Shown: in pieces, positions 20,151-44,183 of the stretch
Layout: each line of letters opens with the position of its first letter
Position numbering within the stretch: position 1 is the first letter of the stretch
Notes under the pieces: generated by a model
What the model saw: only the letters and a program-made list of their open reading frames with translations
Told to the model about the DNA's origin: nothing
Database searches by the model: none
Made by a program: the position numbers and the translations under genes
IMG/VR virus record: IMGVR_UViG_3300045988_124250
Reading direction: 5' to 3' (one strand)
DNA: 64,000 nt
DNA from: a virus

Positions 20151-20492
20151 ATGGCTAAAAGTGTTGTTTAGTTTCGATATTTTGGTGAATTAAATGAAAA
20201 AAATTATCCAGTAACAATAACTAAAGCTAAATTAATGTCAGGAGTAATTTTTGATGATTATACTCCTATTATAAAATTAGGAATCCAGAGTTTACCAGGT
20301 ACTAAATTTAGACTTAATGCCAATCAAGATTATATAATGATTGGCGGAGTTGGTTTGTATGAATTAGATATGACTTAGGGTTCTGGTGTAGTAACATCTA
20401 TTAATTTTGATGAAATGTCATTAACTAATATAGATGAAAATCAAGATGCTTATTTATTAATAGATATTTTATATGAAAAGGAGGGGAGTTAA
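20151..20492 (+). CDS. Small structural-module protein (113 codons, 2 TAGs)
   Basis: RBS GGAGACGGAG plus ATG at 20151. Ends at TAA 20490-20492. Confidence 0.5.
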
Positions 20493-23400
20493 TTGAGTTC
20501 ATTTTATGGTAATTTAAAAGTTAATCCACGGATTGCTTTGACATTTGATAAAACTTATACTAATCGTTATGAAATGGAACAAGCCATAGCTAAACGCGCT
20601 CCAGATGGCTCCTCTACTGGAAATATTAATGGTGATGGAGTATATAATACTCGTTATGTATTTATTAATTATGGCGAACGCCGATATAGCCCCTATATAT
20701 CTACAGAAATAAAAGCTTAGTGGCATCAAACAGCTAATGATGAAAAAGGTAATGAAGTTGAAAAATTTACGGCTAATTGTCCAGTATTATGGGTTTATAA
20801 AATTCAAGGCAGTATTTAGACTATTGGTGATATGGATCCAGAACTTACCCCATAGCGTCCTTATGGGAAGTATTTTCAAGTAAATCCTGAAACTGATTTT
20901 TATAATTCCAATTAGAGATATTATTTATTAAAAGATAGTATTACTCAAGACCCATTAAATAATTTAACGCCTGATGGAATTGATGAAAACTGTGAATATT
21001 CTATAAATAAAGAAATAGATAAAAAACATTATCAAGCTAATTATGACCATACTGTATGGCAAAAAATTTGGTGTTCAGTTAGTAGCAATACTACAATTAC
21101 TGAAAAGTATATTATGGTTGCGAGTTTAGATTCTAAAGCTCCTAAATTTGAAGCTATAGTAGACGCTCCTGATGATAATGATGAATATGAAAAAGTTAGT
21201 TTTTTATATGAAGATAATAGCCGTGTTTAGTTGTCTCCATTAAATAGTTATTATCAATTAGATGGCGAAATAATTATAGGAGAAGGAGAAACCGCTCTTA
21301 CTATTCCTAAATATAAAGAATTAGATATTAGTTATATTGTTGATAAATGGAACGCCAGCACTCCTAATGTAAAAAAATTAGAAGAATCAGTAAAAGAAAA
21401 TTTAAAAGAAATTATTGATTATGAAGAAAAAATTAATAATTCTGAAGAATATAAAGGTTTATTTACATTTGATACTAATCATGAGGCGAATGCTGATAAA
21501 ATTGGTGGATATAATGAATATAGAGCAAATTTAGTCCGTGAAAAAGCTCTTGCTCATTATGCAGGAGATGAAGTCTCTGAACAATATTATGACACTAAAA
21601 TTACAAATTTAGATGATATGTTATCTCAATATGCGTCTAAAGTTCAAGCTTGGAAACAGGCCATTGCTAATTTAAAAGAAGCTCGTAAAAAAGAATATGA
21701 GGCATTACCTATAAAAGATATTTATCGTGGTCCTTTATTTGAATATAAAAAAATTACTAGTGATATAATTATTTATGAACCATTAGAGAAAGATGTAAAT
21801 GGTAAAAAACTTGAAATTATTACAAGTCAAGAAATTCTTGATATGTATTTAGAAACTCTTGGTAATATTTATTATAGTTCAGATTATATTGTAAACAATC
21901 CGCCTCATTATGTTTCTTTATCTGTTGGGTCAAAATACTCTATTACTGATAATAATGGTATTACATTAAAATATTATCATAAAAAATTAGAAGAACCTGG
22001 ATATATTTCATTTGAATTATTTAAACGATTAGTAAAAATCCCTTAGCAATTATATTATTTTGATAATAATAAATTAATAGAAGCTACTATTGATGAATAT
22101 ATTATTACAGATGATGCTGGTAATATTTCTTATAATGAGAAAAAATACAATCAATAGAGAAGATAGTATGCCCAAAAAGTTAGAGTCCATCATAATCATG
22201 GGCCTCATATAGATACTTTTAGAAGTACTGATTTAGATTATAAATTACATTTACCTCGTAATTGGAAATTTAATACAAATACAGATTTCCATTATAATAT
22301 TGAAGGATTTAATAAACGTAGATAGCATTATATCCCTGATAGAGTAAATGAAATTTATTTAAAGAAAACTAGTTCTGGTGAATTGTATCCAGTTCATATG
22401 GATACTAAAGGATATAAATTAATTAATAATAAACTTGATGAGGGAACATTATCAAATATTAAAGAGCCATTTTCTCTTCAATTATCTGATTCAGGATTCT
22501 ATGTTAATAATGAATTAAAATATGCTAAACAAATTGACTAGCGTACATTTGATATTAATCTTCCAGAATTGGGTAATATGGCTTCATTAATGTGGGATTT
22601 AGTATATCCTCGTGGTACTTGGGTTATATATAATCCTCAAGATTATGGTGAAACTAATACTTATGTTGATTATAGTGATAAAAAGTATTTAAATGGTGAA
22701 TTATATTATCCTGACCCTAATGGTACTTATGTAAAAATTGAATTAAAAAATTAGCACGCTTTTGATGAAATTGATGAAATTTTATATATTAAAAAAAATA
22801 ATAAATATATACCTAATTAGAATAATTTTGATTCAAATTAGACATATTATATTATGGATCCAGAATAGTATATTCAAGTCGGTAAAGGAGACCAATTATA
22901 TCGTCAAGCTTATTGTATTTTTATCCCAGCAGATAAAAATACTATAGATAAAAAACGTTATTTGTTTATAGGTAATGATAGAGACCCTAATAACTCAGCA
23001 CTATATCCTAAAACTATTTCTGAATTAATCCGTTATTTATATAAATTATTGGGATTAGAAACAGATAATGATTATTATGATATGCCTTCACAAGAAACTA
23101 TTTGGGGTATGTATAATGCATTATTAAATTTATTAGGTAAATATACTGATTCATATAGTATTAATAATTTTATTCCAGTAAAAAGTGAATATGTTTGGGC
23201 AGACTTATACGATCAAAATGGCAATCCAATAGTAGACTCAAGTGGTAACATTTTAAAAGATGAACCAGCCAAAGAAATAGTATATTATGGTAAACGTGGT
23301 GAAGTTGATTTTGGTTTAAGAAATCCTAACAATCAATGGGATATTAAAACTGAAGAAACATTTTCAACTCTACATACTGGCGCTTTTGGACCATTGTATA

Positions 23401-24128
23401 TTGTTCAAGATAATTATCCGATTTGGAAAAAAGTTGAAGATTTGACTGTTAAGCCTAGTCCTGATACTGCATATTATATTGAAAATGATAATGGTGATAA
23501 AGTATATGCTGGAGACATTACTAAATTTAATGATAAAAAAATATATTACACAGCATATTTACTATATGAAAAAGCCTCTGGCTTAAAAGAAGGGGTCCAA
23601 TATTACCGTGATATAAATTCTCTGTGGGGATTATTAAGAGAATTCCAACAATGTAGAGATAAATACCAAGCGAATTGGGCTCAAGACCATCCCGGTTCAC
23701 CTTCTCATATTTAGAATCGTCCTAGTGTAATTTATAGCACTGAAAAAGCTGTTGAAATTGAATATAATAAAGAAGATTTCTATGGCGATAATAATTATGT
23801 TTTAGAAACTTCTATTAAAGATACTGCAACATTAAAATCAGTCTTTAATTCATTAACTTCTAATTAGAAATTAATGGTTTATTATTTAGATGAAACTGAA
23901 TCTCCATAGTATGTTGTTGTTCAAGCTAATGATGAATATATTCCAAATGCTGAATATTATAAATTAGACAAAAGCGGTTATTTATTAGATACCCATAATG
24001 TTGATGGATTATGGAAAAAAATTTTAATTAACCCTAGTGACAAAGAAAATTATTATGAAGATAGTGAATAGGTAATTAATATTTCTTACTATACAATGGA
24101 TGAAATTCTTTCAATTTTTTAGGAATAA
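20493..24128 (+). CDS. Large tail/baseplate protein (about 1211 codons, about 20 TAGs)
   Basis: RBS AAAGGAGGGGAG, with a TTG start immediately after the upstream TAA and in the same frame. ORF pieces 20493, 21231, 22569 and 22962 share the frame. Ends at TAA 24126-24128 and is followed by a terminator. Confidence 0.55.
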
Positions 24129-24239: not shown

Positions 24240-25178
24240 ATGCCAAATAATGTTAATTATGTAAAGTTTTAGCGCGGTACAATAACTGCTTATAATTCAT
24301 TAAAGGCGCGAAAACTAATAGATCCTAATACTTTATATTTTATCTATGAATCTGCGGATAAGAAAAATGGATATTTATATTTAGGAGATAAATTAATTAG
24401 TGGCTCTGGCTCGGGGACTAATATTACTAAGTTATCTGATATTAGTGATGTTTTAGAAACTGTAACTGATGCTGGTGCGTTTTTAGTTAAAAATGACAGC
24501 GGTAAATGGGAAAGTAAATCATTAGCTGATGTTGCTAGTTTAATAGCTAGTCAATTAGAGATTAATATTAATGCTAATACGTTTGAATTCAAAACTGTTG
24601 AAGGCACGAATCCTGAATTAAATCTCATTGGATTTGATACTGCAGAAAGTGGTTCTTATTTGAGAAAAGGAGCTGCTGGTAAGTTAGAATGGGAAAAGCC
24701 CGAAGAAGATTTTCATACTATTAGTACTAAAATTATTAATCTACAAAATCAAGTTGATAATTTTAATACTGTTATTAAAAATGAAATCGCAAATGCGAAT
24801 CATTTAACCTATAAACCCGTTGGCAGCTTAGAAGATATTACTTCAGCGGAAAACAATAAAGAAAATGTTGTTTACTTAGTGCCTAATAGTAGTGGAGATG
24901 ATAACAATTCTTATGATGAATATATGCTTATCAACTCAAAGCCAGAAAGATTAGGTACATTTGGTAATGCTGATTTAACTGGATATGCGAAAACTTCAGA
25001 ATTACAAGCTGTTAAAAAGAAACTTGTTGAAGAATATACTTCGCTTGAGGTATTCAATTCTACTGTTGGCTCATTAAATGATCTCGGTAAAGCATACGTA
25101 GCTGGAGATACTACTAATATTGTCAACGAAATTAATAAAGTTTATGAGAGTATTATTTGGGGTGAACTCTCAGAGTAA
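24240..25178 (+). CDS. Fibre/receptor-binding-family protein (312 codons, 1 TAG at codon 11)
   Basis: RBS AAAGGAAAGGAG plus ATG. The N-terminal motif VKF-x-RGT...YF...D.K is shared with the genes at 25207, 26995 and 39174. Ends at TAA 25176-25178. Confidence 0.6.
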
Positions 25179-25206
25179 TTTTTAAAAACAAAAAGGAGAT
25201 TTTATT

Positions 25207-26853
25207 ATGGCTGATTATACTGGTAATGCTGTAAAATTTAAACTTGGTACTCAAGCGAGTTTAAATACATTAAAAGATTCTCAAAAAGGTTGGGAAGTAG
25301 GTACATTTTATTTAACTTCTGATAGTAGCCGTTTGTATATTGGTCAAGCTGATGAACTGGCTCTTCTGAATAAGAGTGTTGAAATTTATGACGATCTAAG
25401 CGCATTAAAGGCAAAAAAGACAGTATCTACTAAAGGCGATATTGCCTATTGTGCAAAAGAAAATGTTTTAGCATATTATAATGGTACTACTTGGAATCAA
25501 ATCAATCCTGATGACGATACTATTTTGACTGCTCTAACTCAAGTTGTTTCTTCAGTTGACAAGGGGGTTAAGATTACTACTGGTGGTATTAATAGTGATG
25601 CTGGTAAAACTATTACCGCGGCTGATGTAACTATTACTGGAGCTAAGGGTGCTCAAGTAGCCATGGCTAATAATAAAGCACTCACAATTACTGGTGATAC
25701 CTATGCTCTTAATGTTCAAGAGCATGCTGATGCGACTAATGATATTGATTTAGTATTAGATAGCGCGCTACAAGATGCTAGTACCGTTCATATCAAGGGT
25801 GGTGACAATGTAACTATTACTAAAGTTGCTGATAGTAATAGTATCCAAATCGTAGCTAAAGATACTAAATTAAATGACATTAGTTTAGGATTAGGCGCTA
25901 ATGGTGAATTACAAGTAGGTGCTAGCGATACTGGTACTACAAACGTTCTAAAGAAACAAAAGTTAGGATATTTTATTGATGGTAGTTATTATGGTATCGG
26001 TAGTGATAATGAGGCTAAGCGAGTAGACCTTCCTGTTTATTCTAAAGATCAAGTCGATGCGTTAATTAAGAAACTTGATGGTATGACTTATCGTGGTACT
26101 ATTGGTACTAGTGGCACGACCTTTACCATGGATGCAAGTTTCAATGTATTAAAGGGTGGAACGGCTACTGATATTCATATTGGAGATATGTTCCTAGTCC
26201 AAGGCAGTAAATTAACTTATGCCACTGGTAAAACTGCTGGTATCGGCGATTTATTGATTGCAACTGCTAAGGATGGTAAGTCAGAGACTAATGGCGTTTT
26301 AGCTATTGGTGATGTTGAGTGGACTTATGTACCTTCTGGCGATGATGCATAGATTGATACTACTTATATCTTTAAGGCTGAGGGCGCTACTGATAGTATG
26401 ACCATTACTTCTAGTAATGGTGGCGGAGTAGTTGGTAAAATTGCCTTTGCCGAAGGTGATGGCATTGTTATTGATTCTACTGATAATGGCGGTAAGGCAC
26501 CAAATCAGTTATCTGTTACTATCAAGCATGACACTTATGATACTACACCAACTACTGATGGTAAATCATTAACTAATGGTGGTACTTTCGATGTTATCGA
26601 TTCTATTACTTATGATAATGGTCATATCATTGGTATTAATACTAAAACTATTCAGACTTTAGAATATAAGCCCGGTCCAGATAGTGCTACTCGTGATGAT
26701 GCTACTAACACTGTTACTGTAGCACATACTTTACAAGCTGGAACTAGTTTAGTATCTGATAAAAATGCAAAGATGGTATTAAAATCTGATACTTTAAAAC
26801 TAACTGCATCTGGCAGTACTGTTACTGCTGATTTAGTTTGGGGTTCATTCTAA
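25207..26853 (+). CDS. Fibre/receptor-binding-family protein (548 codons), Ala/Gly/Thr-rich, with a single in-frame TAG at 26350
   Basis: RBS AAAAAGGAGA. The 381-aa ORF continues in the same frame through TAG into ORF 26398-26853 and ends at TAA. GC content and codon usage are atypical for the window. Under the standard code this would be two genes (25207-26352 and 26398-26853). Confidence 0.55.
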
Positions 26854-26913
26854 TTTGAGGACAGTTTATAATAATTATATTCGTGGTTTTTTTAAAAATC
26901 AACGAAGGAATTT

Positions 26914-26945
26914 GGGAGAGGAAAATTCCTCTCCCATTTTTTTTA
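26914..26945 (+). terminator. Rho-independent terminator (gggagagg / cctctccc plus T-run)
   Basis: 8-bp GC-rich stem, 6-nt loop and a TTTTTTTT tail. Confidence 0.65.
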
Positions 26946-26994
26946 TATATAATTTTGTTTTATATAAAATTTAAGATAGAAAGGAGATACTTGC

Positions 26995-29900
26995 ATGAGC
27001 AATAAACGATTCATCCCTGTTCGTGGTACTGAAGCTAAATTAGATTTAATGGGTTTTAATGATGGATATGTTTATTTTGCAGTTGATACTGGTAAAATTT
27101 TCATAGACTATACTCAAGCTGATGGTACAATGGTATCACGAAAGCTTTTAGGAAGCGGTAGTGGTGGTGGCTCAGGAAGTAATTCTGGTATTTATTATGC
27201 CAATTATACTCCGACCGATGCTGAAAAACTAGAAGATGAAATCAATATTCCAATCGGAGCTATTGAAGGCGGAGAGTATCCCGAAGAAGATGATTTAATT
27301 ATCAACTTAGGTGATAATTGTTTTTATCGTGTAATAAAAGTTCAGCGAGCATTTCAAAATGTACTATGTCGTCGTTTAACTGTTGCTGGTGGAGGCGGTG
27401 GAGATGACCCTGGTTCATTAGCTTCTGATATCGAATTAGCTGTAGATTCATTACCTACTGTTAATTTAATTAATGGACGTTCTCAAGAGGTAACATTTGT
27501 TGCTACATCAGCTAAAAATAAGAAGGGTAATTCTTATGACTCTATTCTTACAATCAATTGGAAATTAGAGTATACTGATGATGGTACTAACTATAATCAG
27601 TATAATTCAGGAACATTCCAAGTACCTGATGGTGAGAAATATGCTTTTGAATTTGGTAAATTAGCTAAGGATGATGCTTCTTCAAGATTAGTGTTAGTAG
27701 CTAGCCAAACCAATCATCCAAGCACAGTTACTCGTTTGATAACATTTAAAACTTCTAAGTTAGAACTACAAGAATCAAGCAGCTTTTCTAATTTAAGTTA
27801 TTTTGAACCTAATAAATTAGTACTGCAATGTAATGTTAATGGTGCGATGGATAAAATTGTTGAATATTATTTTGACAATGAAGATGAGCCATTTTTAAGC
27901 GTACCTTTAGCTGCTAATTCGGCTACATTATAGAGTGTTAATGTTTCACAATATATATCTGTAGTTAATGGTTATCATAAAGTTTGGATTCGTTTATTCC
28001 AATCTATTAATGGTAAAAAAGGAATTGAAGTTGAGCCTTTAATTTTTGAAGTAGCTGTTTATGATGGTTTAGACCCTCAAGCTCCTCCAATTATTTGGCT
28101 GGGAGATTATAAAGACGAATATTATAGTTATGACACTATTCAAATTCCTTTCCGTGTTTTTGACCCATAGGCTGAAAACCCAATAGTGCATTTTAAACGT
28201 AATAATATTGAACTTTCTTATTCTCCTCAAACAATTACTGATTCTAAAAATTATGCAATTTTTGAAATTGCTAATCCTGAATTAGATGTAATTAATCACT
28301 ACACTATTACTTGTGGCGATGGAGCACGTGAGACTACCCGTAAGATTGAAATTCGTGTAGTAAAAGACCCAACAAGAACAGATTTTGGTATTTAGAAACA
28401 AGGTTTCTTAACTTATTTGTTAAATACAGTTGGTAGTGGTCGTTCTAATTCTGAGACATTAGCTAAACGTACTACTTTAGTAAATTCTTCTACTGCTCTA
28501 GGTGCTGAGCCTTGTGCGGCGACGTTTACTAATTTTAATTGGTATAATAATGGTTGGACTACTGACGAAGACAATAAAACTTGTTTACGTATTAGTAATG
28601 GTGCTAAATTATCTATCCCTATTGGTCGTACTGTATTTTCAAACCCCAATGGTTCTCAAGCGACTGAACAATCTCATAGTATTGAATTGATGTTTAAAGT
28701 TCGTAATGTTCAGGATTATTCAAATTTAATTCGTACTATTACTCGTTATAAAAATGATGAAAATTTATATAAAGCATTTTATAATGAAGAGACGGGTGAA
28801 TTTAATTATAAAAATTATACTAACTATGATGCATTTTTAGCTTGGTATTTAAAAACTTATGAAGTTGATTTTGTTGATAAAAATGGCGTTAAACGCAGAA
28901 TGGAATATGATGATTTAGAATTTAGTCATATTGCTAAACAAATTAATTTAAATAATGTTATAGGCAGTTATTATTCTGGTAATACTAAAGCTGTTACTGG
29001 CTTATGTCTAGGCCCACAAGATGCATTTTTCTCTAATGGTACTAATACAGTAAACGTGTCTTACGTTGAAAATAAAATTATTACTTTATCTGTTGTTTGT
29101 AAATATAGTAAAGAAAAAATCCAAAACTTAATTTACATTTATTTAAATGGTGTATTGACTAGTGTTGTTAGAAATACTCAAGAAAATGGATTTACTGTAG
29201 AAAATGATAAAATTGAATTTAACAGTGATTATTGCGATATTGATTTGTATAAAGTTCGTGTATACCGCACTGATTTAAATGTTAATGATATTGTCATGAA
29301 TTATGCTGCTGATTTTGAGAATGTAAATATTTATGATCAAAATAAATTAGCAGAAGAAAATACTGCTATTGATGAATTCCAGTTTAGTTATACTAATATG
29401 ATAAAGTATAATAATGAACATCCTGATGCTCCATTAATGCCTTATATTATTTTTGATACTACTAAATTAGAAGATAGTGAAAATAAACTTCCTTATTCTA
29501 AAAAAGTTAAATTAAATGTTGGAGTTGAATTTGTTAATACTCCACTTGAAATGTATTATAATAAAGGTAAATTGGAAGAGTTAGCCAAAGCTGATAAATT
29601 ATTTGGTGATGGTGCTACGGCGGCTGAAAAACAAAAGGCTGTTGAAACTTATTATAAATATCATTGTCCTTCATTTATTAGCGATAGCGCATCAATGAGT
29701 GTTCAAGGAACTTCATCTGAATTTTATCCTCGTCGAAATTATAAAGTTAAAACTAAAAATAATGACGCGGTTGACGGCGAAAAACGAGTTAATATTTTCT
29801 TAAATCGTGGTCCATTTAGAGAGTAGTATAATGCTGATATGTTAGGCTCTACTTAGAAGCCTTATATTTTAAGCACAACATTAGGGCCTTTAGTTGATTC

Positions 29901-32900
29901 TGCTACTGGTCAATTAAAAATTAAATATTATGAAGATGAAAAAGGTGAAAAGGAAGTTGTCTTTAGTGAAACTAATCCTTATAAACCGAATACTTTCTAT
30001 ATTAAAAATACTAATTATGTAAAACGAGGAGAAGAAAAAACTCGTCAAAAATATTGGTATTTTAATAACTATACTTGTGGAACCCATAAATTTACCATGA
30101 AGATTGACTATATGGAATCTTCTGGAACTTATAATATGGGATTTGCGAACATGGTTAAAAATGCTTATTCTAAACATCCATTAGATGATTATAATAATGC
30201 AAAAGCGTTTTAGGTAGAAGACCCTGAATAGACCAATTATATTTTAGCAACGAAATATAAAGATGGTAAGGTTTATTGGTATAAAAACCATAAAGGTAAT
30301 TGGAAATCTACTGATGGCGTAGAAGATAATTTAAATGTTACTAATGCTGAAGATTTTGCTAAAGGACCTGTTGCTCTATATCCTGAGCAATATCCAACAG
30401 CAGAAAAAAATAAGGTATTAAGTGATACTGCTAGCGAATATTATAATAAATTCTATGAAATAGAATTTGGATATAAAGATTTCAAAGTTGATAATACTGA
30501 TGATTATCGCACTTCTGTGCGTGGTTTCCGCGTACTTGCATTTCATAAAAAGAAACCTTCAGATGGTAGTTCAGAGCCTATTTATCAATTTATTGGTATA
30601 TACAATATGCTTTTAGATAAAGGTTCTGATGAAGTATATGGATTCGCACTTGACAGCACTACTGGTAAAGATCCAAAAGCTAAATTTATAGGCGATGGTA
30701 CTAAGAGTATGCCTAAAGTAGCAGAATGTTGGGAGTTTGAAAACAATAGCCGCACCTTCTGCTCATATCGTGACCCACAAGACCGCAAAGATTTGAAATT
30801 TGATGTATTTAATACTGATGGTTCTCGTGTATTAAATGCAGTTCAATCTGCCCCTGTGGTAGCCGACTCATTTGAATATCGTTATCATGATGATGCTGAT
30901 ATACTTGATTATATTATGGCTCCTGATGGAGAATGTAAGAAAGACCCAACATTAACATTCTCTAAGGATGATATTACATTAAATCAAGAAAATCGCGCTC
31001 AGCATTTATTGAAAGATTATTCTAATTGGGAACGCGCTGTAGCTTGGGTTTGGAGTACTTGTACTGAAAAGGTAGTGTCTAATGGTACTTATAAAGTTTG
31101 TGATGTTGGTGAAGAGTTATTTGATAATAGTAAACACTATATCATGACAACTAATCCATTAACTTCTGAATAGATCTATACTTTGGCTAAAGAGTATGTA
31201 GAAGGTACTACTTACTATAAAAAGAATCCTGATTATAACCCAAATCAAGAAAATAGTAGTGAATATATTGTTGCTTATATTGGAACAGTGTTATTTAGTT
31301 CTAATAAAACTAAATTATATACTGGTGAAATTGATAAAAATAATAATATTACCTATGTTCCTTGCTATAGTACTGATACATTCAATCCTGATAAACAATA
31401 TTATACTTTGGAATCTTATAGCGATGAAGAGCTAGATACAAAGGCTGATAGATTAGTTGTTTTATGTAAAGATGAAGCATTTGATGCAAGTAAAACATAT
31501 TATAATTATGATGGAAATGCTAAATGTGGTAAAGCAGTAACTAAGGCTAATGTGACTGCTGAAACTTATGAACCAAATAAATATTATATTGGAACCATTA
31601 TTACTTATGGTGATCGCTCTTATAAATATGACACGCAAGAGTATCGTGGTGATAAATTTACTTATGAATTAAGTGACCACTTCGATAAAGAATATATGGC
31701 TACATATTTTGTTATGACAGAAATTTTTGAGTGTTATGATTCTCGTGGTAAAAACTGTATGATGGCTTCTTGGGGTCCTCAAGAGAAAGGCGGAGACTAT
31801 ATTTGGTATCCAATTTTCTATGATATTGATACTCAATTAGGTATTAATAATACTGGTATTCCATCATTTGAATATAACGTTGACGCCACTGAAGATGGTA
31901 ACTATTCTACTTCTGACAGTGTTTTATGGAATAACTTCTATAAATATTTTAAAACTGGTTTAATTATTCCTAAATATAGACATTTACGTGGTATTACTAC
32001 TAGTGTATTTGGTTCTAATTTAAAACAACCTCCTTTAAAAACTGTAGATCGTATTGAGTCATATTATTTGACTGATTATAATACAACAAATAACTTGGCT
32101 GATTTAGGTACTCGCCCATTAGTAGCAGTCAATTTAGATGAATATTATAAATATATCACTATTACAAATGATGCCTCTTATTTAGATGGTACTACTGGAC
32201 ATATTAGTAGTGATACAACTGGTGTATATACTGTTGATACTAATGGTACTTATTTCTACGCCTTACAAGGAAATAGAAGTCTATCTCGTCAACAGTTCTT
32301 ATCTAACCGCTTAGAGTATATTGACTCTTGGTTAAATGAAGGTAATTATCAACGTGGTGGTGCAAACCGCATTCGTGGTCGTGTAGCTGCCAATAATAAA
32401 AACAAAACTTCAGATAAATGGATTGAAACCGCCAGTGATCCTTATTTCAAGGATGAGAGCACTTTAACCAAAAACCATTTATTTGATGCTGAATATTGGA
32501 TGACATTAACTCCGGCTCACTCTTCTTATGTTACTCTTGGTGATGATAATGAAGCCTATCCTTCTCGTAAATACGATGGTGTTCATGCGCTAAGATTTAA
32601 TATTGATTCTATTGAAAATGGTGTCCGCAAGAGTGAAAATTATCCTGAGCAATTACTATATGTTTATGGTATTAACCAAATGAAAGATCTTGGTGATATG
32701 AGTAATCTATATTGGCAAGAATTTGAAATTTCTGGTGACGCTACTAAATTGACTAGTTTGAAATTAGGATATGATGGTCTGGATGAAAATGGAGAGCGTT
32801 GGTATAATGATAATGTTAACCAATTCAGTATTCCTGCCAGCTCTTCTGATAGTAAAGGTATGCCTTTATTAAAAGAAGTAAATATGAGTAATATTCAATT

Positions 32901-35145
32901 TAATGCTGCTTCTCCTGTATTAGATTTAACTAGTTGTGAAAAATTAGAGAATTTCCGTGCTACTGGATCTAATTTAATTAACGTTCAGTTTGCTAAGGGC
33001 GTAGCATTAAATACTGTATATTTACCTACTAGTATTACAAATCTTGAATTGGTTGAAGCCAACCTATTAAAGAATATAATTACTGAAGATGAATATAAAA
33101 ATCCTACTCGTGATGATGAAGGTAATTTACAAGCTAATCCTGGTTTATATCTCCAAGGTTTCTTTGATAAGATTTCAACTGGAGATAAAGGAGATACAAT
33201 GATTGCTTCTCTAAATATCGCTGGTGGTGGTTTAGGTTATGATAGTTATAAGCTATTAAAGCAATATTATACTATTCGTAGCCAATAGACTAACACTTCT
33301 TAGATTTCTATGACTAATGTTAATTGGTGTCCATATATTTAGATGACAGTCGACGATGAGCGCAATCCATCTACTACTTATTATGTGGATAATGGACATT
33401 ACGGACTAGAACCTTATACTTATACTAATTTTGATGCATGGACTGTTAAAGTTGAAAATGGTGAAATTTATCGTAAAGATGAAACAATTCCAGAAGATAA
33501 AATAAATCAAATCACTGATTTAGTTATGTTCAAAGAATTTATTAGTGATAAGAAATGGATTAAAAACTCTAGTAAAAATATTCCTGATATTTCTGGCATT
33601 ATTTATATTAATAATACAGAAACTATTAAAGAATCTGAATTACGTAACACCATTCAAGTGGCTTATCCTAATTTAACAATTTTCTGTGCGAATGTTGAAT
33701 AGGGATATACTGCTAGATTTGTAATTATGGATGAAGATGAGGGTAACGATGGTCGCTATCAATTAATTGGTTCTATGACCTTAAAAGATGGTGAAACTTG
33801 GTTTGCAGACCCTATTGATGCATTCGGCGATATTAGTGAGAAGAAACCAAATCATGATTTCTATGGTTGGGCGTTAACTAATTCTAAAAATGCAGATATT
33901 CTTATTAATATTGATAAAAGTATTAATAAATGGAACGAGCAAACTATTGATTCTAATATTCATACTTATATATTCTATGCTATTTGTCCTATTCATGAAT
34001 GGAGCGTTAAATATTATTATAAAGATAATACATTAATTGAAGAAAAGAAAATTCCTCATGGTAATTACGCTGTAATGTCTACTATTATTCCTTGGAAAGA
34101 TGATAGTGATTTACCATTAGACCAAACTTATAAATTCTTAGGATATAGTCGTTCTATAACTGCTTCCTCTGCTATGAAATTAGAAGAGTATATGATTACT
34201 GAGGATACTACATTTTATGCAGTATTTGATAATAATCCTATTAATGTATATGAAGATATCCATCCTGAGTATTTTGCAGTTTCTGAATAGACATCTGGCC
34301 TCACTCCAGCAGATACTTATTATACCGACTGGGCGGGAGAAACAAAATGGAATATCCCAGATGGTGTAACTTTAGCCTTGACTAAAAAAGTTAAAGGTAA
34401 AATTACAGTACCCGCCTTCTTTGATGTAAATGGAGTATCTAAAAAAGTTATTGCTATTGATGCAACATTCGGTTCCCCTGGAGATATTTATGATACAGAT
34501 ATTGATGCTCCTCGTAATCCAGGATTCGAGGGAAAATCTGCTACATTAAATTCTATTACTTACGTTCCAGTTTGCTATGGTGAGAATCTAACTCATGTAT
34601 TCTTTGAAAAATATAAAGAAAATGATATTGAAAAATGCAATATTAGATTTTTCTGTGGTGCTACTTTTTCTCATTCAATGAATTTAGTATGGGTAGAATT
34701 CCCTGAAGGTTTGAGATTAATTGGAGACTATGCATTTAAAATGCCTGGTTGTCAATCTCGTGTAGTATATCCAAAATTCTCTAATGTAAGTATTGGTGGT
34801 ACAATTGCAGTCATCAATCAAAGTGCATTCCAAAATACATTTTCTGGAGATAATGATACATTAACCATTGGTTCTAATGTTTAGAAGATTGATAATGGCG
34901 GTTTCACCTTCTCTAGTTATAGTGATTTAAATAGTGATAGAACATTAGGTATTAAAAAGATTATTATTGGTACACCAGAAGAAAAATCTAAATTGCGTAT
35001 CGTATCTGGTGACCCAGCCTTTATTAACTATGCCTCTTGGTCGGCAATTACTATAGAATCAGTCGATTGGTATACTACTTTGAAACAAGATGCTGCTAAT
35101 TCACTATTCTCAGGATTTAATAAAATTAATTATATTAATTCATGA
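26995..35145 (+). CDS. Giant multi-domain receptor-binding/tail protein (about 2716 codons, about 16 TAGs) with a C-terminal BspA-like leucine-rich-repeat domain
   Basis: RBS GAAAGGAGAT. ORF pieces 26995, 28186, 28417, 30517, 31183, 33343, 33727 and 34378 are all in one frame (positions congruent to 1 mod 3). Read codon by codon, no TAA or TGA occurs for 8.1 kb, until TGA 35143-35145. There are Gly/Ser linkers near 27160 and an LRR-like stretch near 32880-33060. A BspA-type LRR (IGDYAFKMPGC...INQSAFQN) lies at about 34380-35140. Confidence 0.55.
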
Positions 35146-35159
35146 AAGGAGAAAAGAAA

Positions 35160-35357
35160 ATGACTAAAATTGTGATGTATGAGTATTTAGGTACTAATGG
35201 AACAATTCTTTCTCCCATTCATCTTGAAGATATATATTATGTTAGAAAACTTCAATTACTTGCTGATAATAATAAACGTCTTACTAAAAATGGAAAAGAC
35301 TTTGTTTAGAACGTAGTTATTCCAGAAGATGAATTAGATTAGTGGAAAGAAGTTTGA
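35160..35357 (+). CDS. Small hypothetical protein (65 codons, 2 TAGs)
   Basis: RBS AAAGGAGAAAAG plus ATG. Ends at TGA 35355-35357. Confidence 0.4.
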
Positions 35358-35469
35358 TTGGGTAGTTCCAATTATCTAATATATAACTTTTTTGAAAAAT
35401 AGAGAGAAGAGATTAATTCTCTTCTCTCTATAAGGGAAAATTATTTTAGAAAGGAAGGTTTTCTAGTCT

Positions 35470-37404
35470 ATGATTACAAAGTATAAAGACTCTGTTAAAT
35501 TAGCTTATCAAAAACTGTATGAAGATATTGACAAAGCTAGTAATGGTAAAATTCAAATTGATAACCTTGAGAGCTTTTTCGGATATATACAAGAAATTGG
35601 TGAGTTAGATAAAAAGTTTTTAAGACTTCCTTTGGATGAGCCTTTATTTGAAATTGATGCTAATAGCCGTAAAATTACAATTCCTTCTGATTTTACTGCT
35701 AATGGTTTATCAGTTCAAGGAGATCATTTAGCTGAAACTGTTTTCTTTAGTATTGATAGATATTTTGATTATATGGATTTAAACAATTGTAATATTCGTA
35801 TCAATTGGAAAATTGGTGATGCTTCTGGTCAATCTGTTAATTTCTCTAAAAGCGTTGATGCTGAACCTGGAAAAATTATTTTTGGTTGGCCTGTAGCTAA
35901 AGATTTAACTGGTAAAAGTGGTACTTTAAGTTTCGCGGTTGAATTTTATACTGAACGTGATAATGTTACTAGTTATAGTTTAAATACTTTAATTTCAACT
36001 ATTAATATTAAAGAAGGATTGGTTTTAATTAATCCTACAGTTATTAATGTTAATGATGATATTTTGAATATGCTTCAAAATAGTAGTTTTGGTGAAGGCG
36101 AAGCCAAAGTTGAAGATTTAAAATGGCTTACTAATGGTTTGGTCACTGATCCCGGAGCTACAGTAGCTTTAGAGTTTATAAATTTAGCCGGTAATGCAGT
36201 AGATGAAGGAGATTCTCAAAAATTATCTTCTGTACCTGTAACTTTATATGCTCGGGCTCAAGCAGGCGCGGCAGATATTAAATATTCTACTCCTGCTGGA
36301 AAAGATGACCCAGTAGATAAATATGTTCTAGTGAGTAAAAAGGATGATGATGATAATCGTATTCCTTTAGACCCTACTGGCACTTATTATATTAAAGAGG
36401 GTAGCGTTTATAATATTGCTTCAAGCGATGATATTAAAACTTGGAATGACCCAGAAGTTGCTATTCCAAACAAAAGTGAATTATATGCTCGTTATGCCAC
36501 TATTGAAGTAAGTGGTGTTGGTGAATATTATATCCAAGCTCAAGGAATTATTTTTGACAAAGAAAATAAGAAAATAGGTCAAGGTGTTCTTGAACATACT
36601 CCAGTGGTTATTTGTCCTGAACCAGATGCACCAGCTGAGATTACTATTATTTCTAATAATAGCGATTTAAAAGATGAAGGTTATGATATTGATTTATCTG
36701 TAGCTGATTCTGTTGCATTTTTAACTGGTAATGAAGTCACTTTAACTGCTACTGCTTCTGGATATGACAATAAAGATGCTTATGAAGCTCCCGCAGAAGG
36801 TATTGAGCCTAAAGCTTTAGTTCAATATACTTGGTATAAAGATGGAAATGAAACTCCTGTTAATACTTCAAAATGGATTCGTTCTACTAAAAACAATAGT
36901 TTTATTGTTAATGAAGAAGGTAAATATACTGTTGGAGTTAAAACATTTTTAAATAATCAAACCACTTTAGATGAAACTAAATCTAAAGAATATATTGTTT
37001 CTCCTTTAGCTTCTAAAATTGAAGAAAACAGTATTATTTTAGGTTTAAGTAAACAAGGTGGACAGTATTGGATTAATTTAAATGCATCTACTGATGGAGT
37101 TACAGATAAATATACTCAGAAATCATTTGATGTTAAATATGTTTTAACCGCTGTTAATGAAAAAATATATAGTGATAAAGTAATTTGTACTCTATATCAA
37201 TTACCTAGTGAAGAAAGTGATGATACTAATCCTATGTTTGTTTGTGAGTTAACCTCTTCTGATATTGAAGGCGGAAAACATACTACAATTACTTCTTCAA
37301 TGATTAAGAATCAAGAAGGTAATTATTTTATTCGTGTGACTAATAAATATAATGGAAGTGCTTATTCACTAAATAGTGATGCATTCTATATTAATATTAA
37401 GTGA
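35470..37404 (+). CDS. Structural protein (644 aa) with no TAG at all; its N-terminal domain is paralogous to the gene at 37434
   Basis: Intact ORF with RBS GAAAGGAAGG. The N-terminal roughly 100 aa (MIT-Y-D...IP..F...QGDH-AET-YF--DRYFD-MDL-N) matches 37434-38042. Confidence 0.7.
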   Translation: MITKYKDSVKLAYQKLYEDIDKASNGKIQIDNLESFFGYIQEIGELDKKFLRLPLDEPLFEIDANSRKITIPSDFTANGLSVQGDHLAETVFFSIDRYFDYMDLNNCNIRINWKIGDASGQSVNFSKSVDAEPGKIIFGWPVAKDLTGKSGTLSFAVEFYTERDNVTSYSLNTLISTINIKEGLVLINPTVINVNDDILNMLQNSSFGEGEAKVEDLKWLTNGLVTDPGATVALEFINLAGNAVDEGDSQKLSSVPVTLYARAQAGAADIKYSTPAGKDDPVDKYVLVSKKDDDDNRIPLDPTGTYYIKEGSVYNIASSDDIKTWNDPEVAIPNKSELYARYATIEVSGVGEYYIQAQGIIFDKENKKIGQGVLEHTPVVICPEPDAPAEITIISNNSDLKDEGYDIDLSVADSVAFLTGNEVTLTATASGYDNKDAYEAPAEGIEPKALVQYTWYKDGNETPVNTSKWIRSTKNNSFIVNEEGKYTVGVKTFLNNQTTLDETKSKEYIVSPLASKIEENSIILGLSKQGGQYWINLNASTDGVTDKYTQKSFDVKYVLTAVNEKIYSDKVICTLYQLPSEESDDTNPMFVCELTSSDIEGGKHTTITSSMIKNQEGNYFIRVTNKYNGSAYSLNSDAFYINIK

Positions 37405-37433
37405 TAAATTAGGAGAAAGGAGAATGAATAATC

Positions 37434-38042
37434 ATGATTACTAATTATCAAGATTATGAGAATAAGCTTTGGTCAATTGACAAACAGATGCGAACTTCCA
37501 AAGCCATTCTCCTTCCAACTCCACCTAAAGAAGAGTTAATCCCTATCGATTTAAATGAACGTAAAATAAAAGTGCCTAAGTCCTTCATTATCGTCTCTCA
37601 GGACCATTCGGCTGAGACTTTATACTTTACATTTGATCGATATTTTGATGGCATGGATTTATCAAATACCTGTTGTATTATTCAATTTCAAAATGCAAAA
37701 GGTGAAGCCTATTATTATGTAGTGCCTTATATGGATATTACTACTGATAATGTAAATCAAAAAATTATTATGCCATGGGTAATTCAAAATGCGGCCACTA
37801 AATATGCTGGTATTGTAAAATTTGCTATTAAATTCTTTAGTCTTAATGCTGCGGGACATTTAATGTATGAATTAAATACATTAGTTGCTGAAGCAATTGT
37901 AGAACAAGGTCAGAATTGGGATTTAGATAATATTTCTCAAGAAGAATTCGTTTTTGATAAAGCATTTATTTAGGCAATTCATGATTTAGAACAAGCACAT
38001 TAGAAAGGTACATTTGCTTTAGAGTGGATTGATAATTTTTAA
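37434..38042 (+). CDS. Paralogue of the N-terminal domain of gene 35470 (202 codons, 2 TAGs)
   Basis: RBS AGGAGAAAGGAG. ORF 37434-37973 continues through two TAGs to TAA 38040-38042. A terminator follows. Confidence 0.55.
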
Positions 38043-38054
38043 TAAAATAAAAAT

Positions 38055-38093
38055 AAAGGGAAGACTTTAAATTAGTCTTCCCTTTATTTTTTT
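38055..38093 (+). terminator. Rho-independent terminator (aaagggaagact / agtcttcccttt plus T-run)
   Basis: 12-bp inverted repeat followed by TTTTTTTT. Confidence 0.65.
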
Positions 38094-38172
38094 GGGTAAA
38101 TATAAATAATGATTTATTATAATTTTCTATAATAAATAGATATAAAATTATGAGAAAAAGGAGAATAGAAAA

Positions 38173-39039
38173 ATGAGTAATTCACCTTATGAATCTACAG
38201 TAATTTTACAAGATGATGCATTAAATAAAATGCTTGCTAACATAAAAACTTATCCAGTTGCAGGTAAAAAAACTGGTATTTTATTACGACCAAATAAAGA
38301 TGGTACAAGATTATAGATTTAGAATGCTCGAAAAGTTCGTATTGTAAAAAAAGGTAATTTAACATATTTAATTATAGAAGATTCAACTGATGATGAGAAT
38401 CCATCACAATCTTATACTATTACTGGGAAACTAAATTTCACCCCAGAAACAACAATTACTAAAGATGCTAATTTAACTCCTGGTATGTTTAATATAAAAG
38501 AAAATGATGTTTTAAAACAAACCATATTAATAAAAGGATTTGACCGGTCTCAAAATTTAGTATTAGGAAATAGGGCTACAACAAAAGGCGGAGATAATGG
38601 AGTTTTAGTTGCTAATAAAGTACGTGGAGCTGTTTGGAATGATTACGCTGAATATCGTGAATCATTAATTAAAGAAGCGGGTCGTTGTGTAGTTGAAACT
38701 GGATATGGAGATTTAGAATTATCAACTAAACGTCTTCAATTAGGCGGGAATATTATCTCAGATACATTTGGTTTTTCTATTGGTGAAACTGATAAAGCTG
38801 AAACTCCTATTGCAGTATGCGGACGAGTATTAGCCTATCCCTATGAAGATAGATATAAATTTACTGCTGGAGCAGCAGTTTGTTCTGGCCCCGATGGAAC
38901 TATATCATTAATGACTCGTAAAGAAGTTAAAGAATGGCCTGATGCTATAGTTGGTTATGTTAGTGAAATTCCTGAATATAAGGAATGGGGGCCTGATAAA
39001 ATTCAAGTTAATAATCGAATTTGGATTAAAGTAAAATAA
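38173..39039 (+). CDS. Fibre-family protein (288 codons, 2 TAGs) whose C-terminal roughly 140 aa are shared with the C-terminus of the long fibre gene 39174-44183
   Basis: Upstream leader ATGAGAAAAAGGAGA. The C-terminal motif block AVWNDYAEYRE...SDTFGFSIGETD...PIAVCGRVLAYPYE...WIKV recurs at 43760-44180. Confidence 0.6.
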
Positions 39040-39044
39040 TAATA

Positions 39045-39077
39045 TGGCAGATAGTTTTTACTATCTGCCATTTTTTT
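39045..39077 (+). terminator. Rho-independent terminator (tggcagatag / ctatctgcca plus T7)
   Basis: 10-bp inverted repeat plus T-run. The sequence after it (TTTTTTTATTGGCC...) duplicates the post-terminator sequence at 7060. Confidence 0.65.
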
Positions 39078-39173
39078 ATTGGCCTAATTAAAATAATAAT
39101 ATAATTCAAATTTTTACAAATTAATAGAAATATTTTTATAAACTTTTTTTCAGAGAAGGGAGTTTACAAATTA

Positions 39174-42100
39174 ATGGCATTGTTTAAAATAAGCAAGGGC
39201 TTGTCAAAAAATTTAATGACAAATGTGCCATATGCAAAAGAAGGTTTTGCATATTTTACATCAGATGATGGTAAATTTTACATTGATATTGATGGTGATG
39301 GCACTAATGCATCTCCAGCTGTAATTGGAGATAATCGTATTCCTCTTAGTGCTTTAAGCACTGATTGGATTAAAGCTACTAAAATTGAAGATACAGAAAC
39401 TTATCCTATTTTAGCATTCAAAGTAGCGGACAATACTAAAAATTTAATTGAATTAAAATATGGTAGTATTGGTTATAAAGATGGAACATTAGTAATTCCT
39501 AATGTTGAAACAGGAAGTAAAGATGAAGTTTTAATTGAAAATAATGATGAAGGCTCAGCTCTAATTATTGATAATAAAGGCGCCGGCATTGGCATTAAAA
39601 TTATAAACACTGGTAAAGATTCATTAGTAAATAATTAGGGTATTAATATCAATGATAATATCCGCTTAAATATGAATGGCAGCGCATCATTTGAGGGAGA
39701 TGTCGTAATAGGTGGTACTTATATTTTTAAAGGTGGAACTGCTAATATTCTTGGCGCTAATAAAACAAATACTATAATTTCTAATTAGCTTACATTATAG
39801 GAAGGAGCTGTATTTGGCGGGGATGCTCAAAATGCTGGTTTAATGACTTGTGGTATTTGTGGTGTATCAGTACCAACAGATGATGGAGCTTGCGAAAAAG
39901 ATAATTTATATATTAATTATGATGGAGATAATTCTTATAAAGCTAGCCGTCAAGTAATCTTACAAGCTGGCGACGCAGGAAAAGATTATGGAAATCATTT
40001 GTATCAATATGCCGCAGCGCGTGGTGACGCAGTACATGATTGGTCATTAAATAATTTTTATATAAAGTCAGATATTGATAATAAATTAAATAATTTATTA
40101 GCCACTAATGACGCTATGGTATTTAAAGGTACTATTGGTGGAGACGCAGCTGCTACTATTCATGAATTACCAGCTAAACATAGTGCAGGTGAAACTTATC
40201 GCGTTTATGATATTAAAGGCGGTAATGATGGTAAATATCTTGGCAATGGTGAAGTTTGTGAAATCGGCGATTTAATTATTTGTATTAAAGATGGAACTAC
40301 TCATAGTGCTGGAGATTGGACTATTGTTCAAACTAATATTGATGGAGCAGTAATTAATACAGATGGCTCTTCTACTGATGGACATATTGCTATTTTTAGC
40401 GGAAATAAAGGTAGAACTATTAAAGATAGTGGTAAATCATTTAATGATTTGGCTATAGCAAATCACACTCATACTAAATTAGTTAATGATAAATATGCAG
40501 TAGATTTTAATGGAACATCACTATCACCGATTAATAATCCTCAAAATACAATAGATTTAGGTAATACATCAAATCCATGGCAAAATTTATATTTAACATC
40601 TGATATTAAATTTAAAGATAGCTCTGGAAATTGGAAAACATTAACAGAGAAATTGACTGGTAAATCAAATGTTGGACATAAACATACAATTGCAGATACT
40701 GATGGATTACAAACTGCATTAGACAATAAATCTAACACTGGTCACACTCATACTATTTCTAATATTACAGACTTACAAGATGTATTAGATAATAAAGCTG
40801 CTAAATCTCATAAGCATGAAATTTCTGATATTACAAATTTACAAAAAACATTAGAAGGTAAATCTGATACAGGACATAAACATGGAATTGCTGATATTAA
40901 TGGGCTACAAACTGCATTAGATGGTAAATCTGATACTGGTCATACTCATTAGATTGCGGCTAATGTTGATACTTCTAATTCAGAAGAAGGCGCTGTAATT
41001 AAATTAGAAGGTACTGGTGGCCTAAATGCAGTTAGCTATAAAGCCACTCACGCCGATAAAGGCCCTTCTATGGCGGCTGACGTTTCTTCCATTACTACTG
41101 CAAGTAACGTAAAAAAATCATTAGATGGCGAATTTGGTAAAACATTAGAATTTACCATCCCTCGTATTACTGTTGATAAATAGGGGCATGTTAATAAAAC
41201 CGTTGATGATAAAGTTTCAATTGTCTTACCTTCAGCTCCTACTATTGGAGATGGTGAATTAACGATTAAAGTTGGTAATGGAACCATAAAAGCTTCTGGA
41301 GATAAAACATTTACTGCAAATTAGGCGGCGAATACAGATATTACCCTACCAGTATATACTATTACTGAAACAAATACATTATTAAGCGGTAAAGCAAATA
41401 GTAGTCATACTCATAATTATGCAGGCTCTTCTTCTGCTGGAGGCCCTGCAACAAGCGCTGATAAATTAAATACTGATAATATTGGTAGTGAAAAAGCTCC
41501 AGTCTATTTTAAAGATGGAATACCAGTTGTCACTGGACAAACATTAGATAGAGATATTAGTGGTAATGCAGAGACTGCTACTATTGCAGGAAAAGTTGAG
41601 CATGCCCTAAGTATTAGTGTAGGTGGTACTCCAAAAGGTAGTTATGATGGTTCCGCAGCTAGAACAATCGATGTTAACGCGGCGGATTTAAAAATTTCTG
41701 GCGCATTAGTATATATTGGACGTGTAGCTACAAAGCCAACCAGTTCTCAAGTGACTCTTATTGACGGAACTACTATTACTGCTGAAGCTGGTAATGTTGT
41801 TATTTGCACTGGAGATAATAAAGAATATTTATATGATACAGATGGAAATTGGGTTGATTTAGGAAGTTCTACTTCATATGCATTAAAACCTCATATTCAT
41901 GGTAATATTAGTAGTGATGGTTATTTAACAAATGAAACTGGTGTAGTACAAACTAATTCTATAGTGTACTCAGATGCAGATGGAAAAATTAGTAAAGGCC
42001 CAACATTTGATACTACTAATACAACTAAAAGATTCCTCGCTGAAAATGGTAATTGGGAGTAGAGTAGTCATCATACTTCTGGGACGTGGAATGGATTAAC

Positions 42101-44183
42101 ATATACAGCTAAACCAGTTAATGGTGCAGGAGAGTTGAAATTTACTATACCCACTGGCACTGGAGCTACTTCAGTTGCTCTTGGTAATCATAATCATGAT
42201 AAGGTATATAAAAAGATTCAAACAGCAGTATCTAGTCCTGCAGCATCCAACACAGATATTTCATTTATTGATACAGTGTCATAGGATACTTAGGGTAAAA
42301 TTACTGCAACTAAAAAGACGGTAAGAGATGCTTCAGCTAGTCAATCTGGTATTGTATCTACTAAGACTCAAACATTTGCTGGAGAAAAAACCTTAAATGA
42401 TAAAACTCATTTCTCTAAAGGTTTTGATTTAAAAACTAGTAGTGGAAGTGCTTAGTTTAACGCAAGTACTGTAAGCGTTAGTAATGGTACTGATTATGTT
42501 GATTTATATGTTTCTACTGTTGGTGGCGGAAATGGTGATAAAACTAAGCCATTAGTATTAAATGCTAATGCAAATGGCTCTGGTAATGTAGGTATTGGAA
42601 TTACTTAGCCAACAGAGAAATTAGAAGTAAATGGTAATGTTAAAGCTACTCAGTTTAAAGGTAATGCTGACACAGCTGATAAATGGAAAACACCAAGAAC
42701 ATTTACTATTGGAACAGCTAAAAAAACTGTAGATGGTAGTTCTAATGTAAGTTGGACTCTAGATGAATTAGGAATAGCAACCTCTGGCCATAATCATGAT
42801 ACTGTTTATGTAAAAAAATCTGGTGATACAATGACTGGATTATTAAAAACAAATGGTAGTATTGAAAATCAAGGAGAAGCTAAATTTACTCATCCTGATT
42901 ATTGCCCAGACATTGAAGACACAGCGGAGAATATTGGCTGTGCATTTAAAGCTAGCCGTGGTCATTTTAATCAAATGAATGTAAATGAAATTTATTTACC
43001 TGCTACTACAACTACAAATTATGAAGGAAATAAAATTTCATTTAAAACCTATTCAGGTGGGAATAATGGCGCTTATGCTAATGTATCTGAAGTTGCTCAA
43101 ATTAATACAACTGGGTTAATAGTAGGCTCTTCTAGTATTGGTACTAATGGTTATATTGAAGGCACTTGGTTAAAAACTACCAATGCTGGAAATAAAGCAG
43201 GAGATTTTGCTACTATTGATAGTTCTGGATGGATTTATAAACGTACAGCAGCACAAGTTTTATCAGACATTGGAGCCGCATCAAGTTCACATAATCATGA
43301 CACTAATTATGTGAAAAAAACCGGTGACACAATGACTGGCCAATTAGCCATTGATAAAGCTGGATATGGATTCCGAGTAAATAATGGATCAACTGGTTAT
43401 ATTGAGCTATCTCGTGATAACGGTGGTGCATAGTTATATGGATTATGGGATTGTATTGCACAAAATTGGGTTATTTAGTGTGATGGAAATATTGGTATAC
43501 TAAATGGAAAAGTTCGAGTACCTGGCTTTTCAACTAGTTGGGTAGCCGGCCGTGATTCAGCTGTGGTTAAAATTTTTAGTTATAGTGGATATAATGCTAT
43601 AACATCAATGAAAACAACTAACGGCAGTTGGGAAAATGGAGTATATACTAATGATAGAATGTACTTTAATTATGTTCCAGACTCTAATTATAACGCTGGT
43701 ACAAACCAAGCGGCTCAAATATGGTTAGGGCCAGATGCTAGTTTACATGCTTCAGCAGTTTGGGGCGCAGTATGGAATGACTATGCTGAATGCCGTGAAG
43801 CAGATACTATTGAGCCAGGTAAATGCGTAATTGAAGTTGGTGATGATACTCTTATTACATCAACTGAACGCTTAATGCCGGGTGCGAATATTACATCTGA
43901 TACATTTGGTTTTTCTATTGGTGAAACTGAATAGGCAAAGACTCCAATAGCGGTAAGTGGACGTGTTCTTGCTTATCCCTATGAATCTCGTGAAGAATTT
44001 AAAAAGAATATTGGATGTCCAGTATGTTCTGGTCCTAATGGAACAGTTTCTATTATGACTGATGAAGAATATAGAAATAAAGGTTATTGCGCGATTGGTA
44101 CTATTTCAGCAGTTCCTGATTATGAAGAATGGGGAACGGGAAAAGTTAAAGTTAATGGGCGTGTATGGATTAAAGTATTTTAA
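39174..44183 (+). CDS. Long tail fibre protein (about 1669 codons, about 14 TAGs) with a tandem 22-aa His-x-His fibre repeat and a C-terminal domain shared with gene 38173
   Basis: ORF pieces 39174, 39843, 41751, 42831 and 43563 are all in frame 3 and linked only by TAG. Ends at TAA 44181-44183. The N-terminus carries the family anchor motif. Confidence 0.65.
40660..40949 (+). repeat. About 4.4 tandem copies of a 66-nt coding repeat (KS-x-TGH-x-H-x-I-x-DI-x-x-LQ-x-x-LD-x), a phage tail-fibre repeat
   Basis: Peptide repeats KSNVGHKHTIADTDGLQTALDN, KSNTGHTHTISNITDLQDVLDN, KAAKSHKHEISDITNLQKTLEG, KSDTGHKHGIADINGLQTALDG, KSDTGHTH. Confidence 0.8.

Follow-up and report, generated by a model that had tools for sequence, protein, structure and literature searches.

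A putative Mtd_N-type module at the N-termini of four fibre-like proteins of an uncultivated, TAG-recoded phage

Do the fibre-like genes that follow one another in the tail region of an uncultivated phage carry a common N-terminal domain, and, if so, what is that domain and what would it hold? The question is raised by a stretch of 64,000 nucleotides, IMG/VR virus record IMGVR_UViG_3300045988_124250 (hereafter the window), in which a sequence-only reading had described four fibre or receptor-binding genes with one N-terminal motif. We refer to these genes as F1 to F4; they, their parts and the genes between F3 and F4 lie on the plus strand. Gene models were redone with only TAA and TGA as stops. 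F1 (24240..25178) then encodes a fibre-like protein of 312 amino acids (aa) in which a coiled-coil middle separates the N-terminal module from a small C-terminal part; F2 (25207..26853) encodes a fast-evolving fibre-like protein of 548 aa, F3 (26995..35145) a giant protein of 2716 aa and F4 (39174..44183) a mosaic tail fibre of 1669 aa. The module of about 45 residues at their N-termini is predicted to be a diverged Mtd_N domain (PF18454) and thus to belong to the Mtd_N superfamily.

Homology among the four N-termini

The module starts within residues 1–7 of all four proteins. It covers aa 6–50 of F1 (NYVKFQRGT...LYLGD; 24255..24389), supported by the PF24243 match of F1 homologues, hhalign and a structure model; aa 7–46 of F2 (NAVKFKLGT...RLYIGQ; 25225..25344), supported by hhalign; aa 5–52 of F3 (RFIPVRGT...VSRKLL; 27007..27150), supported by a model and hhalign; and aa 1–58 of F4 (MALFKISKGL...NRIPL; 39174..39347), supported by hhalign and preceding many different downstream sequences. 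A Gly/Ser linker follows it in F1 and in F3. The family consensus sequences are NYVKFQRGslaaYn.L..kD.nTLYFIYd....GsLYLGd for F1, MANVxFKRGLQaxL....DGtFYLTTDThRLYvG for F2, xKFRPVRGxExxI.....GyvYFAtDTGkIYlD for F3 and MALFKIsKGLaaNL...a.EGyaYFTtDDGKFYIDi for F4, and the identity from module to module is approximately 20–30%.

The sequences on which the sequence-only reading had based its shared motif were found where it had placed them, and their similarity goes beyond chance. Aligned singly, they are marginal: in phmmer searches against 540 six-frame segments of the window, F3 and F4 were reciprocal best matches (E 0.002–0.005), and F1 and F2 matched at E 0.1–0.3. The F1-family profile alone found F2 at E ~0.08–0.2 and left F3 and F4 unmatched. 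Relatives were gathered as F1 homologues, as syntenic loci on related contigs of 110–400 kb and as F4-type proteins with their loci, and family profiles were built from approximately 35 related jumbo phages. These profiles match clearly. In hhalign, F4 aligned with F3 at 97% (P 1e-10), F2 with F3 at 94% (P 1.7e-7), F4 with F2 at 93% (P 4e-7) and F1 with F2 at 85% (P 6e-6), with scores of 28.8–48.9; when the columns of the target profile were shuffled 100 times, the best scores were 15.1–23.9, and the real scores also exceeded those of reversed profiles. The pairs F1–F3 (12%, P 0.0024) and F1–F4 (<1%, P ~0.3) were no better than shuffles.

The alignments include the first strand, the R/K-G turn and the helix in addition to the hairpin, and in the six-frame translated window a merged F2+F3+F4 module profile (alignment A3) matched those three N-termini and nothing else. 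Given that the real scores far exceed the shuffle maxima, the homology of the F2, F3 and F4 modules is solid. F1 is predicted to carry a related version, of the PF24243 type. Beyond the module, BLASTP at E<0.01 shows no relationship among the proteins, as had been proposed, apart from one weak exception, F2 290–385 against F4 310–400 (29% identity).

Identity of the module

When 61 orthologous modules were scanned against Pfam, Mtd_N was the top family, with 12 of them matching at E<=10 (best E 0.001) and with alignments in register over profile positions 3–35 of 37. The Mtd_N gathering threshold of 26.3 bits was not reached: F2 and F4 orthologues scored 12.8–19.4 bits, and the window N-termini gave no match at E<=10, their only Pfam match being the partial one of F1 to PF24243. 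The threshold itself was exceeded by three of four Mtd_N control N-termini (Mater gp154, 35.4 bits; Mater gp151, 32.9; S-B05, 37.6), the fourth, Mater gp153, scoring 20.7. Profile–profile comparison carried the assignment further. Against genuine Mtd_N, a side of the comparison made up of four sequences only, the F2 family reached 94.8% in hhalign (P 5e-8; score 37.1 against a shuffle maximum of 16.1) and the merged F2+F3+F4 profile 93.8%. F2 is thus the nearest of the four to canonical Mtd_N; F3 and F4 are connected to it through F2, and F1 is not.

The position of the module also agrees with that of Mtd_N, at the extreme N-terminus of phage fibre or spike proteins. Searched against 1.84 billion representative proteins, the module profile matched 2477 clusters (50% identity) at E<=0.001, 677 of them at E<=1e-10; in 149 of the 150 best of these 2477 clusters the match started within the first 38 residues, mostly at 1–20, in proteins of 68–2573 aa. 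With the F2 consensus, tblastn against GenBank phages gave weak matches, which lie at the N-termini of genes annotated as tail fibre or tail spike. Among GenBank phages no close relative was detected: megablast found no match, and tblastn with F1 found one weak match. PHROGs provided no functional name for F1–F4, and a homologue search with the module alignment returned only short F3- or F2-type fragments cut at TAG and without Pfam annotation.

For F1, 614 homologues were collected. They match PF24243 (Phage_tail_C, 'phage tail tip domain', 26 positions) over residues ~8–32, the first half of the motif, at 25–43 bits (P0061, 43.0; P0046, 28.0; P0049, 28.1). The gathering threshold of this family, 23.7 bits, was not reached by F1 of the window (12.2–16.7 bits), which matches only the last nine positions of the profile (18–26), and F2, F3 and F4 do not match the family.

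The AlphaFold2 model of F3 residues 1–57 (pLDDT 86) consists of a strand (7–11), a helix (13–18) and three strands (25–29, 35–40 and 46–51). The same order, strand–helix–three strands, is found in residues 7–55 of the AlphaFold model for F1, made for protein P0001, which is 95% identical to F1 of the window (mean pLDDT 72, with a helical middle). The module model bears a weak resemblance to Mtd (1yu0), to phage tailspikes and to collagen trimerization units; for the trimerization domains of collagen XV/XVIII (PDB 3n3f, 9bnb), it is one of fold only, at 6–16% identity and in an unrelated biological context. Foldseek against viral models retrieved tail fibre, tailspike, head fibre and Mtd_N-annotated proteins, all with the low scores to be expected for 57 residues, and such structural matches of a predicted model are suggestive only. 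The three best matches in BFVD (A0A8S5URQ4, A0A8S5URD8 and A0A8S5URD4; 85, 271 and 95 aa) come from the record of one uncultivated virus, Siphoviridae sp. ctg6c78, and they are probably fragments of fibre genes cut at recoded stops by standard gene calling.

Compared with Mtd_N of the major tropism determinant (Mtd) of Bordetella phage BPP-1 (PF18454, PDB 1yu0), to which the window sequences and their orthologues score 0–19 bits against the required 26.3, F3 and F4 have G-Y-x-Y-F-x-x-D-T-G-K-I-Y-x-D in place of the signature G-E...T-D-T...G-D-G. It is possible, but on present evidence doubtful, that this F3/F4-type module, carried by at least 2477 protein clusters, is a distinct, uncatalogued Mtd_N branch outside the Pfam and PHROG models, and that in this clade of recoded jumbo phages the four paralogues build a fixed, hierarchical fibre complex with a leucine-rich repeat (LRR) protein of 2700 aa on a 45-residue anchor. 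On account of the link to Mtd, a diversity-generating retroelement was also considered; neither such an element nor a C-type lectin domain was detected in the window, where no search was aimed at them and where reverse transcriptase and template repeat were not searched for.

Attachment and exchange of the fibres

What would such a module do on four proteins at once? The explanation that we prefer, with some confidence, is that a Mtd_N-superfamily module on all four, built from one strand, a short helix and then three more strands, nucleates trimer formation and holds every fibre by its N-terminal end, either on the tail tip or on another fibre. What follows the module would then project outward: a coiled coil in F1, a body of 2700 aa with leucine-rich repeats at its end in F3, and a repeat-rich mosaic fibre in F4. 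Since the module has a version of its own in each protein family, with low identity between modules and strong conservation within families, the four proteins probably occupy four different specific sites, and they would not compete for one. Trimer formation, virion attachment, docking to the baseplate, receptor binding, multiple receptor specificities on one virion and the anchoring role of the module are inferred; for trimer nucleation and a separate site per protein, we draw on the conservation of the module, the divergence among its versions, the linkers, the tail context and the literature on Mtd, in which the N-terminal beta-prism is presumed to link the trimer to the tail fibre (PMC10743442).

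Several observations weigh against this explanation. None of the four window sequences reaches any Pfam threshold, and, compared alone with Mtd_N, F3 reached 22%, F4 6% and F1 2%. F1 joins the group through F2 only, and in the F1–F2 comparison the score against a reversed profile already came to 19.8. A search of PDB sequences with the module profile found no solved structure, only non-significant beta-propeller hairpins. Finally, oligomeric state, virion location and binding partner rest on inference.

The first alternative, which we regard as unlikely, is that the module is a trimerization nucleus only, and that other parts of the proteins, or adaptor proteins, attach them to the tail. The module is always found at the very N-terminus, and phage fibres are generally attached by that end; its family-specific version is conserved above the rest of the protein, which a mere nucleus would not need: it is the best-conserved part of F2 (48% against 31–37%) and of F3 (55% against 40–44%). 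The view that the beta-prism of Mtd attaches that protein to its fibre (PMC10743442) also argues against a purely trimerizing role.

A second alternative is the model of the sequence-only reading, in which receptor-binding proteins with freely exchanged C-termini share one common docking site on the baseplate. A synteny comparison bears on this model in opposite ways for F4 and for the other three proteins. Among close relatives, F4 ranges from 675 to 2207 aa, with the first 145 aa ~60% identical, internal blocks rearranged and, in two of them, the last 140 aa 92% identical; among distant relatives only the first 38–91 residues are common. F4 is clearly the only strongly mosaic fibre of the four, its downstream parts having been exchanged on a conserved N-terminus, and for this protein the proposed swapping of C-terminal parts stands. 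Some distant F2 relatives likewise share only their first ~100 residues. F1, F2 and F3, however, are each present in single copy, always in the same order, at every one of the 36 non-redundant related loci and are mostly orthologous over their whole length, and for these reasons they are conserved paralogous parts, not swapped cassettes. F3 is, moreover, among the best-conserved proteins of the tail module, and the modules are too unlike one another, at the identities given above and with conservation specific to each family, to suggest a single site. Hence, of the common docking domain that had been proposed, the homologous module is supported and the common site is not, and we hold this second model to be improbable.

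Least probable by far is that the resemblance reflects chance or composition, its second half being a generic beta-hairpin (G-x-Y-F-x-x-D-x-G-x-x-Y) in an AT-rich genome: the weak single-sequence E-values, the non-significant matches of the hairpin half to beta-propeller blades in the PDB and the failure of F1–F3 and F1–F4 to exceed their shuffles speak for it, but F2–F3, F4–F3, F4–F2 and F1–F2 beat all 100 column shuffles as well as the reversed profiles, the alignments extend beyond the hairpin and, within the window, the module profile finds nothing but these N-termini, so that for F2, F3 and F4 this reading is largely refuted.

Identity to three close relatives (L001, L009 and L012) is 88–92% for F3, 86–88% for the gene product starting at 20151, 66–68% for that starting at 17324, 55–80% for F1, 41–44% for F2, 38–42% for that starting at 10053 and 35–44% for that starting at 20574. 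Given such uneven identities (88–92% against 41–44%), F3 has the behaviour of a conserved core component, F2 that of a fast-evolving one. The uneven divergence across 10053–35145 suggests that the genes of this one module either recombine or are under very different selection.

Recoding, neighbouring genes and known systems

The window has a G+C content of ~30%, and TAG is the sole interrupter of its long reading frames; read through TAG, the region resolves into large genes. F1 contains one in-frame TAG, F3 14 and F4 14. The TAG of F1 (24270..24272), which had appeared as the 'x' of KF-x-RGT, is matched by CAA (Gln) in L006 and by TAG in L001, L005 and L007, and F1 homologues read KFQRG at this position. 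In close F3 orthologues, TAG stands opposite Gln at 25 of the 40 positions where the partner lacks TAG. On these three grounds, TAG is a sense codon for Gln in this phage, which thereby resembles TAG-to-Gln recoded phages (genetic code 15) in having TAG within long conserved genes and aligned with Gln. TAG recoding of this kind has been described for gut phages (bioRxiv 10.1101/2021.08.26.457843; PMC9523058). The gene models of the sequence-only reading had missed the read-through and were wrong in this respect: F3 and F4 had been taken as far too short, and, because F4 is read through TAG, the end of the feature moves from 39700 to 44183. No tRNA gene, suppressor included, was detected within the 64-kb window. 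Nearly all long genes, on both strands, read TAG as Gln, and within the same syntenic clade (L001–L062) the recoded stop is TAG in some genomes and TGA in others (L017, L036), while the code is standard in L015, L016, L042 and L043.

Very large genes lie upstream of F1, at 12–7028 (2338 aa), 7141–10032, 10053–17327 (2424 aa), 17324–20134 and 20574–24128. The product of the first looks like a tape-measure protein, judged by size and position only. The gene at 17324 is the only one of them with a functional label, matching PHROG 1887 ('tail protein'), and this match, together with the tail repeats of F4, places F1–F4 in what is predicted to be a tail module. On the minus-strand half of the window lie genes that we take to be replication genes, named from reading their translations alone.

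Near the C-terminus of F3, at aa 2557–2646 (34663..34932), lies a BspA-type leucine-rich repeat region that scores 23.9 bits (E 4e-5) against Pfam LRR_5 (PF13306), below the gathering threshold of 27.7 bits. Since LRR_5 is recorded, and without a mark of weakness, for the F3 orthologues in L005 and L007, the repeat region of F3 is probably a diverged member of this family. F4 exceeds the threshold of the phage tail repeat PTR (PF12789; 27 bits) with 132.7 bits, spread over three stretches of which that at aa 541–596 is the best. Its C-terminal domain of 150 aa (43728..44180), which is 92% conserved in L046 and L047, found no match among PDB sequences and PHROGs; it is 56% identical to the C-terminus of a small protein encoded just upstream of F4 (38173..39039), the start of which is uncertain between ATG 38173, with two in-frame TAG codons, and ATG 38485. 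For this F4-type C-terminal domain, a role as a fibre tip is conceivable, as is one resembling that of an assembly chaperone. An internal block of F4, at aa ~200–300 (GLxTxGICGVSxPxxxGxCxKxNLYINYD...LYQYAAARGDAV), recurs in P0136–P0176, many of which have quite different N-termini, and it appears to move separately, as a fibre module of its own.

Two further genes between F3 and F4 (35470–37404, 644 aa; 37434–38042, 202 aa) gave no match to the F2+F3+F4 module profile. Their products have another N-terminal domain in common (35% identity over 134 aa; motif DH-x-AET-x-YF-x-x-DRYFD-x-MDL), and they may form another pair that shares an attachment part.

The closest parallel among the phages compared is Bacillus phage Mater (Herelleviridae; NC_027366, L064 84817–108927), in which the adjacent tail genes gp154, gp153 and gp151, located just after the baseplate genes, encode proteins that also start with Mtd_N, at the scores given above for the controls, and also have unrelated C-terminal parts: an SGNH esterase in gp154, a pectin-lyase fold in gp153 and an endosialidase in gp151. 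Unlike the phage of the window, Mater is cultured, uses the standard code and has canonical Mtd_N on enzymatic tailspikes of 800–1000 aa, and it contains no counterpart of the 2716-aa LRR protein F3 or of the coiled-coil F1. Several receptor-binding proteins per virion with related N-terminal attachment parts are also found in Klebsiella phages, in Alcyoneusvirus and in Ackermannviridae (PMC6872550, PMC10253068, bioRxiv 10.1101/2024.03.21.586117). Such anchor-and-branch systems resemble the window in combining conserved N-terminal attachment parts with variable C-terminal parts, but they use other domains, namely T7 gp17-like anchors, T4 gp10-like branching domains or short docking peptides. 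Neither a T7 gp17-like anchor nor a T4 gp10-like branching domain was found in Pfam scans of F1–F4 and neighbouring proteins; by analogy, the proteins of the window may work similarly, although they are not members of such a system.

That several fibres share an N-terminal attachment domain is a design already well known, and what we describe is a diverged Mtd_N-type version of it in an uncultivated clade with mixed codes. In uncultivated gut phages, host-recognition proteins are difficult to detect, all the more so where standard gene calling splits their genes at a recoded TAG. Reading TAG as Gln changes the picture here, in that two of four apparently 'small' genes really encode proteins of 1669 and 2716 residues, and the short N-terminal module would serve as an annotation marker for fibre genes in recoded phages. 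Should the uncatalogued Mtd_N branch and the four-part fibre complex prove real, the module could be a sequence tag for the host-recognition proteins of uncultivated recoded gut phages.

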